Both the position numbers and the translations under genes were made by a program. The notes under the pieces are model-generated. The model ran no database searches. It saw only the letters and a list, made by a program, of their open reading frames with translations, and had not been told where the DNA came from. Positions 56,624 through 56,998 of a stretch of DNA of 56,998 nucleotides are shown here, in pieces (the stretch's first letter is position 1; the number at the start of each line of letters is the position of its first letter). The stretch is from Candidatus Cloacimonadota bacterium. Lineage in GTDB: Bacteria > Cloacimonadota > Cloacimonadia > Cloacimonadales > PWNZ01. The stretch lies in assembly GCA_003564135.1 (NCBI GenBank), contig PWNZ01000174.1, forward strand, positions 1 through 56,998, read 5' to 3'.

Positions 56624-56998
56624 AAACCGGACAAGCCGGAACTAATTTTTTCTCTACCACAAATCAGAGCACAAATGAAAAAGAAAGGTTTAGAAGGTTT
56701 AGAGAGTTTAGTGCTTCGCTGTTTAGATGAGGGACAGGCGCGGTCTGCCCTGGGGAATCTTCTTTTTTATTCCATCGGGGTGTCCGGTTCGTACATATCG
56801 TGGTTTAAAATTGAGTAAAGTGAACCGGTTCGCTGACTTTTTAACCCGTGAAACCTTTTTTCTGTTTAACCGGGTTAGTCGGCAACTTTCTGCCAAAAAA
56901 AATATGAACCGAGTTTACGAGCTCGCCGGACGGAGTACGGCCACTAGTTTTTTTACGAGCTCGCCGGACGGAGTACGGCCACTAGTTTTTTTACGAGC
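56624..56998 (+). repeat. Copy C, the most complete copy of the modular intergenic repeat; it runs off the window end
   Basis: In order: ccggacaagccgg hairpin; A/G-rich gaatgaaaaagaaagg; tttagtgcttcgctgtttagat; GC hairpin; ggtttaaaattg; long hairpin 56832-56882; ggcaactttctgcc plus A8; 38-bp tandem units from 56916. Confidence 0.9.
56916..56998 (+). repeat. 38-bp head-to-tail tandem repeat (2 full units plus the first 7 nt of a third), each unit a short hairpin followed by a T-run
   Basis: The unit tacgagctcgccggacggagtacggccactagtttttt starts at 56916, 56954 and 56992. The stem is gccggac/gtacggc (one mismatch) with loop gga, then cactag plus T6-7. Related units lie at 82-137. Confidence 0.9.

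Follow-up and report, generated by a model that had tools for sequence, protein, structure and literature searches.

What kind of sequence is the modular, hairpin-rich repeat that recurs between genes along this contig of 56,998 nt (the whole of which is referred to here as the window), and in which both ends of the contig lie? On balance, and with moderate confidence only, we regard it as a family of mosaic interspersed repeats, non-coding and specific to the lineage, of the same general kind as the BIMEs of E. coli and the BOX elements of pneumococci, with REP-like hairpins, which would have been dispersed in trans and then remodelled by slippage, its hairpins perhaps serving as incidental 3' stem-loops. 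The window consists of ordinary chromosomal DNA, in which Pfam identified mutL, miaA, pdxJ, alr, psd, nrdJ, lon, lysS and valS, and secreted proteases with T9SS-type tails are also encoded. The LysRS homologues are from Cloacimonadota (best match 89% identical), and the product of a 313-aa gene located between copies B and C (55478-56419, - strand; no Pfam domain) is 100% identical to proteins on 1.2-kb contigs from SL_3KL_010_SED / SRR490128, a sediment sample from the Kulunda soda lakes; this gene has 28 homologues at E<=1e-10, the named ones all belonging to Cloacimonadota. The folC/Mur-ligase gene (25568-26890, - strand) contains an in-frame stop at 26018-26020 (...LYKQQL*ENIDLSF...), and its homologue on contig L003 is a single 446-aa gene; a pseudogene, strain variation or an error of sequencing could each account for the split.

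The following copies and candidate copies were considered within the window (h1 and h2 denote two hairpins of the element).

Copy C, 56621-56998, + strand: most complete copy, cut by the window end (repeat search, BLAST, nhmmer, covariance model)
Copy D, 1-~164, + strand: 5' part cut by the window start (repeat search, nhmmer, covariance model)
Copy B, 54815-~55068, + strand: first ~7 nt of the left end missing
Copy A, ~37268-37494, - strand: left end intact, right-hand modules missing
Copy F, 17373-17451, - strand: fragment consisting of h2 and ~25 nt of the preceding block
Fragment E, 27594-27690, - strand: rejected as a member of the family

A first-pass annotation of the sequence had counted six copies, five of which (A, B, C, D and F) stand. 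A, B, C and D are true copies: block identity in a repeat search of the window was 82-100%, and the matches had E-values of 1e-52 to 1e-56 in BLAST and of 1e-57 to 1e-69 in nhmmer. Copy F, described earlier as a hairpin module alone, is a real partial copy that also retains the ~25 nt noted above (nhmmer E 2.7e-10, covariance model E 1e-16). Fragment E (27625-27690), proposed earlier as a degenerate copy, yielded no BLAST match at E<=1e-3 and no nhmmer match even at E<=10, and was dropped; its part 27594-27644 instead resembles the start of an unrelated contig (L029). This stretch (- strand, in the spacer downstream of nrdJ) is 80% identical over 51 nt (E 2.4e-6) to positions 33-82 of L029, at the very start of that related Cloacimonadota contig (AATCTG..GCGAAATCTG..GAGACATT..ATTCAT), includes the 'ctgtggaatc' earlier assigned to copy E, and may represent a second small repeat family. 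A 28-nt direct repeat (27801-27828 and 56562-56589, 79% identical), centred on the palindrome TTGACTATCAA, adjoins the E spacer and sits ~35 nt before copy C; its palindrome resembles the right-end palindrome of the element, TCAATATTATTGA.

Two further copies were found in a JGI metagenome scan with an invariant 22-mer, on two short contigs of the soda-lake sample: the copy on L001 has internal duplications and is truncated on its right side, and the copy on L002 has both ends intact and is missing the GC hairpin and h1. The element is about 225 to 380+ bp long, non-coding and located between genes; about eight copies or fragments, mostly from one population, were examined overall.

That both window ends lie inside copies, as had been reported, is correct (D at the left end, C at the right end). 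The overlap of C and D is only 93.6% identical over 140 nt (BLAST), so that C and D are distinct copies rather than the overlapping ends of a circle; a circular 57-kb replicon was rejected on this ground and because the genes are chromosomal. With the window ending inside two different copies, the contig is broken at the repeat. Contigs L007 and L009 likewise end within the repeat and L008 stops ~20 nt before it. Exact-sequence look-up of lysS and of the 313-aa gene to extend the contig ends returned no record; the identical protein P0121 occurs only on 1.2-kb contigs that stop at or just before the repeat. The repeat accounts for the breaks at both window ends and of 1-2 kb contigs in public assemblies, and breaking genome assemblies at these spots is its main practical effect.

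The modules of the four larger window copies are located as follows (the caret marks a junction).

Copy C, + strand: left junction CTTAA^ACCGG, with the CCGG-N5-CCGG hairpin at 56627-56639
Copy C, 56689-56728, + strand: GTTTAG 9-mers and invariant 24-mer
Copy C, ~56731-56751, + strand: GC hairpin
Copy C, 56748-56781, + strand: hairpin h1
Copy C, ~56803-56814, + strand: GGTTTAAAATTG
Copy C, 56824-56893, + strand: hairpin h2
Copy C, 56881-56902, + strand: GGCAACTTTCTGCC and A-run
Copy C, 56914-56998, + strand: 38-nt tandem units, 2.2 copies, 100% identical
Copy D, 1-58, + strand: h2
Copy D, 47-68, + strand: GGCAACTTTCTGCC and A-run
Copy D, 80-140, + strand: 38-nt repeat, 1.5 units
Copy D, 137-156, + strand: right-end palindrome CAGTCAATATTATTGATAAG, with the element ending ...GGTACTAAT at ~164
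Copy B, 54876-54899, + strand: invariant 24-mer
Copy B, 54902-54920, + strand: GC hairpin
Copy B, 54918-54951, + strand: h1
Copy B, 55000-55017, + strand: h2 reduced to a 5-bp mini hairpin
Copy B, 55042-55061, + strand: right-end palindrome
Copy A, 37494-37485, - strand: left end CCTAG^ACCGG
Copy A, 37388-37411, - strand: invariant 24-mer
Copy A, 37270-37285, - strand: mini h2

Each module listed in the first-pass annotation was found at its place, and nhmmer and block comparison agree with its description of the element as modular, with modules present or absent between copies. Conserved linear blocks are the left end CYTAR^ACCGGACAAGCCGGAAC, the GTTTAG 9-mers with the invariant 24-mer, and the right-end palindrome. 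The left junction CYTAR^ACCGGACAAGCCGG (CYTAR^ACCGG) occurs in 4/4 intact left ends (C, A, L001 and L002); the right end reads ...CAGTCAATATTATTGATAAGGTACTAAT in D as well as L002, with a degenerate version in B, and carries CTAA ~10 nt past the palindrome. The end blocks, left and right, are conserved around a variable array of the 38-nt unit, which is present in at least 2.2 copies in C, in ~1.5 copies in D and as a single part-copy in B and L002.

B and L002 share a deletion with an 8-nt direct repeat (CGGCAACT) at its borders, the apex of h2 is lost in A and B with the basal stem kept as a mini hairpin, GCCTGCCCTG and the entire h1 are duplicated in L001, and the number of GGTTTAGAR 9-mers varies between copies. 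In module content, then, copies differ through deletions and duplications, and short direct repeats bound several of these; this is the pattern of replication slippage in non-coding repeats rather than of an RNA with a fixed architecture.

In the invariant 24-mer, five copies agree at every position, although elsewhere they differ by about 18%. This suggests a sequence-specific, putative binding site; the mosaic-repeat account leaves the 24-mer unexplained. A resemblance of the 24-mer to a type II CRISPR repeat was by eye only and without an array, and is treated as coincidence. The left part of the element also contains TTATCCACA, the E. coli DnaA-box consensus, in perfect form only in L001 (~985-993) and L002 (~811-819) and degenerate, with 1-2 mismatches, in A (37458-37466, - strand), B (54838-54846) and C (~56657-56665); conservation of this site is too low to suggest a function, and a DnaA box was likewise dismissed as coincidence.

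The earlier view that the element is non-coding was borne out: no frame is open across all copies, and the six frames are stop-interrupted in most of them. Six-frame translations compared with 5.8 billion proteins gave no match at E<=0.001, and a candidate small protein (MKKKGLE...LVLRCLD) was rejected, its ATG-initiated ORF being present in C, B and L001 only, with disagreeing frames. Nor does the element match an Rfam family, in line with the first-pass annotation, in which no named ncRNA had been recognized: the only Rfam match at the gathering threshold was a tRNA-Ser (625-711), and at E<=10 copies C and L002 gave only sub-threshold chance matches. No match was found by blastn for distant similarity in phage and plasmid collections.

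Among the modules, h2 is the one that behaves as a structure. This hairpin of ~55 nt was aligned for C, L002 and F together with two copies of L006, a Cloacimonadota MAG from Antarctica; of its 18 pairs, seven were changed on both sides, and 96.7% of the cells were paired, against only 23-41% in slid controls. The observed score was reached by 0/500 shuffles. By this comparison h2 is maintained by compensatory changes and is the sole part of the element with real structural support. Its basal and apical stems vary around a constant internal loop (TTTTTA / A) and core AACCYGTG...CACCGGGT; written as RNA, the loop reads C/UUUUUA-ACC opposite Y-A, and like the CCYGTG/CACCGGG core it is invariant. 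The covariance model of h2 found C, D, F, L002 and two sites in L006, and it weakly found h1 (CCCTGTGGAAT-loop-ATTCCATCAGGG) in B, C and L001, which indicates that the element carries two related hairpins; their common core is CCYGTG...CAC(N)GGG with a T-rich loop. L006 was found with a gapped pattern, and one of its spacers, 500 nt long and between convergent genes, holds four to five h2-type hairpins in both orientations; those on opposite strands are ~60 nt apart, whereas h1 and h2 of the window are direct. We consider h2 a well-supported hairpin motif, and its covariance model could serve in a census of such repeats and in looking for an enzyme that would spread them.

An exact search with the invariant 22-mer gave 0 matches in 185,579 GTDB species genomes and 0 in the viral collection (IMG/VR), in which the h2 pattern and the right end also gave 0 matches. 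An 18-mer of the left end gave 17 viral matches, roughly the chance number by estimate, and these lie mostly in coding P-D-K-P repeats. The exception is L018 (IMGVR_UViG_3300014205_009228, 60% GC), in which CTAARCCGGACAAGCCGGAACCCAAAAA occurs at 4256-4281 and 10875-10900, 12-15 nt upstream of minus-strand gene starts; the two sites match the left end of the window element in 25/26 and 24/26 nt, for which the chance is ~0.006 as a rough estimate.

No full copy was found in ~47 kb of sequence from relatives, chosen by their LysRS (89%, 82%, 77% and 72% identical) or by homologues of the 313-aa protein. In L009 (LysRS 82% identical), an element-like fragment (GGTTTAGAAGGTTTAGAAAGTTGAG...AGGGAACAGGCTCTGTCC) begins directly after the lysS stop and reaches the contig end. 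In the window and in L003 the lysS-macB junction spans 8-10 nt, and in L005 it spans 17 nt; these are empty sites and that of L009 is a filled one, the sole contrast of this type found; the corresponding junction in L010 comprises 85 nt, in which no element-like sequence was found. On L009, a 2.2-kb contig, positions 1-55 carry ACCGGCTAAAGCCGGT and a second CCGG-type hairpin, and positions 1991-2174 carry the element-like fragment and a GGGACAGAAC..GTTCTGTCC hairpin, so both contig ends lie in hairpin repeats; it seems that related species have such repeats in versions of their own. The 3' end of the window's lysS (35373-35400, - strand) shares with the left part of the element a 12-mer (TCCACAAATGAA, within the last codons TTTCCACAAATGAAGCCGGAA) and GCCGGAA, and the L009 fragment comes right after this lysS 3'-end sequence; the 12-mer match is probably coincidental, about three such matches being expected by chance (a rough estimate).

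Small mosaic repeats are common in bacteria, and the reading we prefer places the element among them. REP-like hairpins, conserved linear blocks and the variable 38-nt unit would have been joined into composite copies, and an enzyme acting in trans, most plausibly one that recognizes the hairpins on one DNA strand, would insert new copies. No gene for a mobilizing enzyme was found in the window, whose genes are housekeeping ones only. Inserted copies would later be remodelled by replication slippage. Where a copy stands behind a gene and is co-transcribed, its hairpins would serve incidentally as 3' stem-loops, protecting the mRNA end or causing weak termination, and no dedicated RNA gene would be involved; such an RNA role is plausible and is not needed to explain the data. 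Of the two candidate explanations offered in the first-pass annotation, the non-autonomous mobile element fits better, given the filled and empty lysS-macB site and the absence from closer relatives, but not as a classical MITE, there being no terminal inverted repeats.

More speculatively, and we would give this rather little weight, h2-type hairpins might be the recognition structure of an undescribed Cloacimonadota system, i.e., a REP-like superfamily without GTAG/CGTC tags that is mobilized by a new enzyme specific for the hairpin or bound by an RNA-binding protein dedicated to it, with the 24-mer and its GTTTAG iterations as a second protein-binding site.

The strongest rival, although we consider it unlikely, is that the element is a cis-acting structured RNA, i.e., a selected 3'-UTR, terminator or mRNA-stabilizing module or a multicopy small RNA. 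The covariation of h2 speaks for an RNA; the earlier candidate of a 3'-UTR or terminator-associated structured RNA is poorly supported for the element as a whole. The whole-element fold is not better than shuffles (z = -0.6 on the + strand, -1.55 on the - strand), the right-hand tandem units fold with z about 0, and the left half has 31 predicted pairs with 0 compensatory changes and a positive covariation term, so that a single consensus structure for it was rejected. Entire modules are dispensable (L002, A and B), no promoter-like site was found within the copies, Rfam offered no match, and the element is absent at the same sites in relatives. Two folding results agree better with an RNA: in B, A and L001, the stretch that spans the GC hairpin and h1 is more stable than its shuffles (z -2.6 to -3.2), and the hairpin RNAs are more stable on the + strand than as reverse complements in 10/12 cases, owing to U-G pairs kept in the motif orientation, which is only a hint, the copies being non-independent, and one that counts for the mosaic-repeat reading as well.

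Gene context bears on the same question. Copy A follows the stop of the GLUG gene after 232 nt and precedes the lysS start by ~387 nt, the copy and both genes being on the minus strand; B begins at the stop codon (TAA) of the S8 protease gene, with which it is co-oriented; and F lies between the convergent genes alr and psd, co-oriented with psd. An RNA acting at the 3' end of transcripts would fit these placements, as well as the start of the L009 fragment at a stop codon. The first-pass statement that the element lies 3' of a co-oriented gene thus holds for A, B and F and extends to L002 and L009; E (nrdJ) drops out, not being a member, and C and L001 face divergent genes, C at 205 nt from the 5' end of its neighbour and L001 upstream of a 16S rRNA gene, which an RNA of this kind would not predict. 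Downstream of D, on the same strand, lies this gene:

tRNA-Ser, 625-714, + strand

In the tandem-gene contexts (A, L002 and L009), the only informative ones, co-orientation is 3/3 (p = 0.125). The copy in L002 stands behind a canonical terminator, ahead of a co-oriented ferredoxin gene, and is therefore not needed for termination there. Intrinsic terminators were found in neither C nor D, and in A and B only as the weak mini h2; the T-rich tail that follows the mini h2 in these two copies would suit a terminator, but the terminator calls there are no more numerous than in shuffles.

Less probable still is a non-autonomous derivative of an IS without inverted repeats (an IS200/IS605-type PATE, or an IS110/IS91-like one) that inserts beside the short target CYTAR. 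Such an origin would explain the constant CYTAR^ACCGG junction of all four intact left ends, the CTAA past the right-end palindrome, the filled and empty site and the patchy distribution among relatives. It would also explain the ends: an alignment of the left 50 nt with the reverse complement of the right 50 nt was no better than shuffles, 236/500 shuffles being at least as good for L002 and 308/500 for B. The constant CYTAR is, however, not distinguishable from element sequence, so that the 'target' may be part of the element. The end hairpins (CCGG-N5-CCGG left, TCAATA-T-TATTGA right) are mutually unrelated, unlike IS200/IS605 ends, and h1 and h2, the hairpins that are related, lie in the interior of the element instead of subterminally. 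Neither transposase nor integrase (Y1, DEDD, HUH and RAYT included) was found among the 36 window proteins by Pfam, and the Rfam null would cover any IS605-orfB or HEARO-type RNA models in Rfam. The flanks of L002 (TAATAACCCC / TAATAATCCC, 9/10 match) are a possible 10-bp target duplication, a single case; nothing convincing was seen at B, and the remaining copies are without one flank.

Decayed local duplications or an assembly artefact, i.e., remnants of segmental duplication or chimeric ends of contigs without a mechanism of dispersal, would suit the small number of copies seen and the position of B, C and D within 2.3 kb of a contig end, but this is very improbable and largely refuted, with unrelated flanks around copies that occupy both strands and scattered sites (17 kb, 37 kb, 55 kb and both ends), the same sequences present in independent assemblies (JGI and Logan), C and D differing at 6% of positions, and the h2 hairpin type recurring in the Antarctic MAG.

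To judge from a literature search, which found no earlier description, this is the first interspersed repeat family documented for the uncultured phylum Cloacimonadota. As a genomic repeat it is of an ordinary class, found in a phylum that has been little studied, and it opens no long-standing question.

Among known systems, the BOX elements of Streptococcus pneumoniae have the plan boxA-boxB(n)-boxC, measure 67-637 bp, possess terminal inverted repeats and make target duplications (PMC3049150). The present element is likewise a composite modular intergenic repeat of similar size that varies between copies, with an internal tandem unit in variable number (boxB there, the 38-nt unit here), predicted stem-loops and probable transcription as part of untranslated regions, and it shows the BOX plan of end modules around a variable tandem array. 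It differs in having no terminal inverted repeats and one doubtful duplication, in the lack of apparent sequence similarity, and in the phylum of its host. REPs are palindromic units of 20-40 bp, defined by a GTAG or CGTC tag that stays unpaired beside one end of the palindrome, and REPs and REPINs are mobilized by RAYTs (PMC3733652). With REPs and BIMEs the element shares hairpin units kept by compensatory change, mosaics with other motifs, a location mostly behind genes, between tandem or convergent ORFs, with plausible transcription, and clusters in opposite orientation (L006). Unlike in REPs, no consistent GTAG/CGTC tag stands beside h1 or h2 on either strand (flanks CGGTTC^GCTGAC...GTCGGC^AAC for h2 and GCC^CTGTGGAAT for h1; F has CGTC only through overlap with its own stem); h1, at ~34 nt, fits the 20-40 bp of a REP, whereas h2, at ~55 nt and with an asymmetric conserved T5 internal loop, is larger; and in the window h1 and h2 are direct, not inverted as in REPINs, and no RAYT was seen among its 36 proteins. 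MITEs such as Correia, ERIC and RUP are likewise small, lie between genes without coding for protein, and are patchily distributed, with filled versus empty sites, but are defined by the terminal inverted repeats that it lacks, and it differs from PATEs derived from IS200/IS605 in its unrelated end hairpins (CCGGACAAGCCGG vs TCAATATTATTGA). We place the element with the small interspersed mosaic repeats of bacteria, outside any named family.
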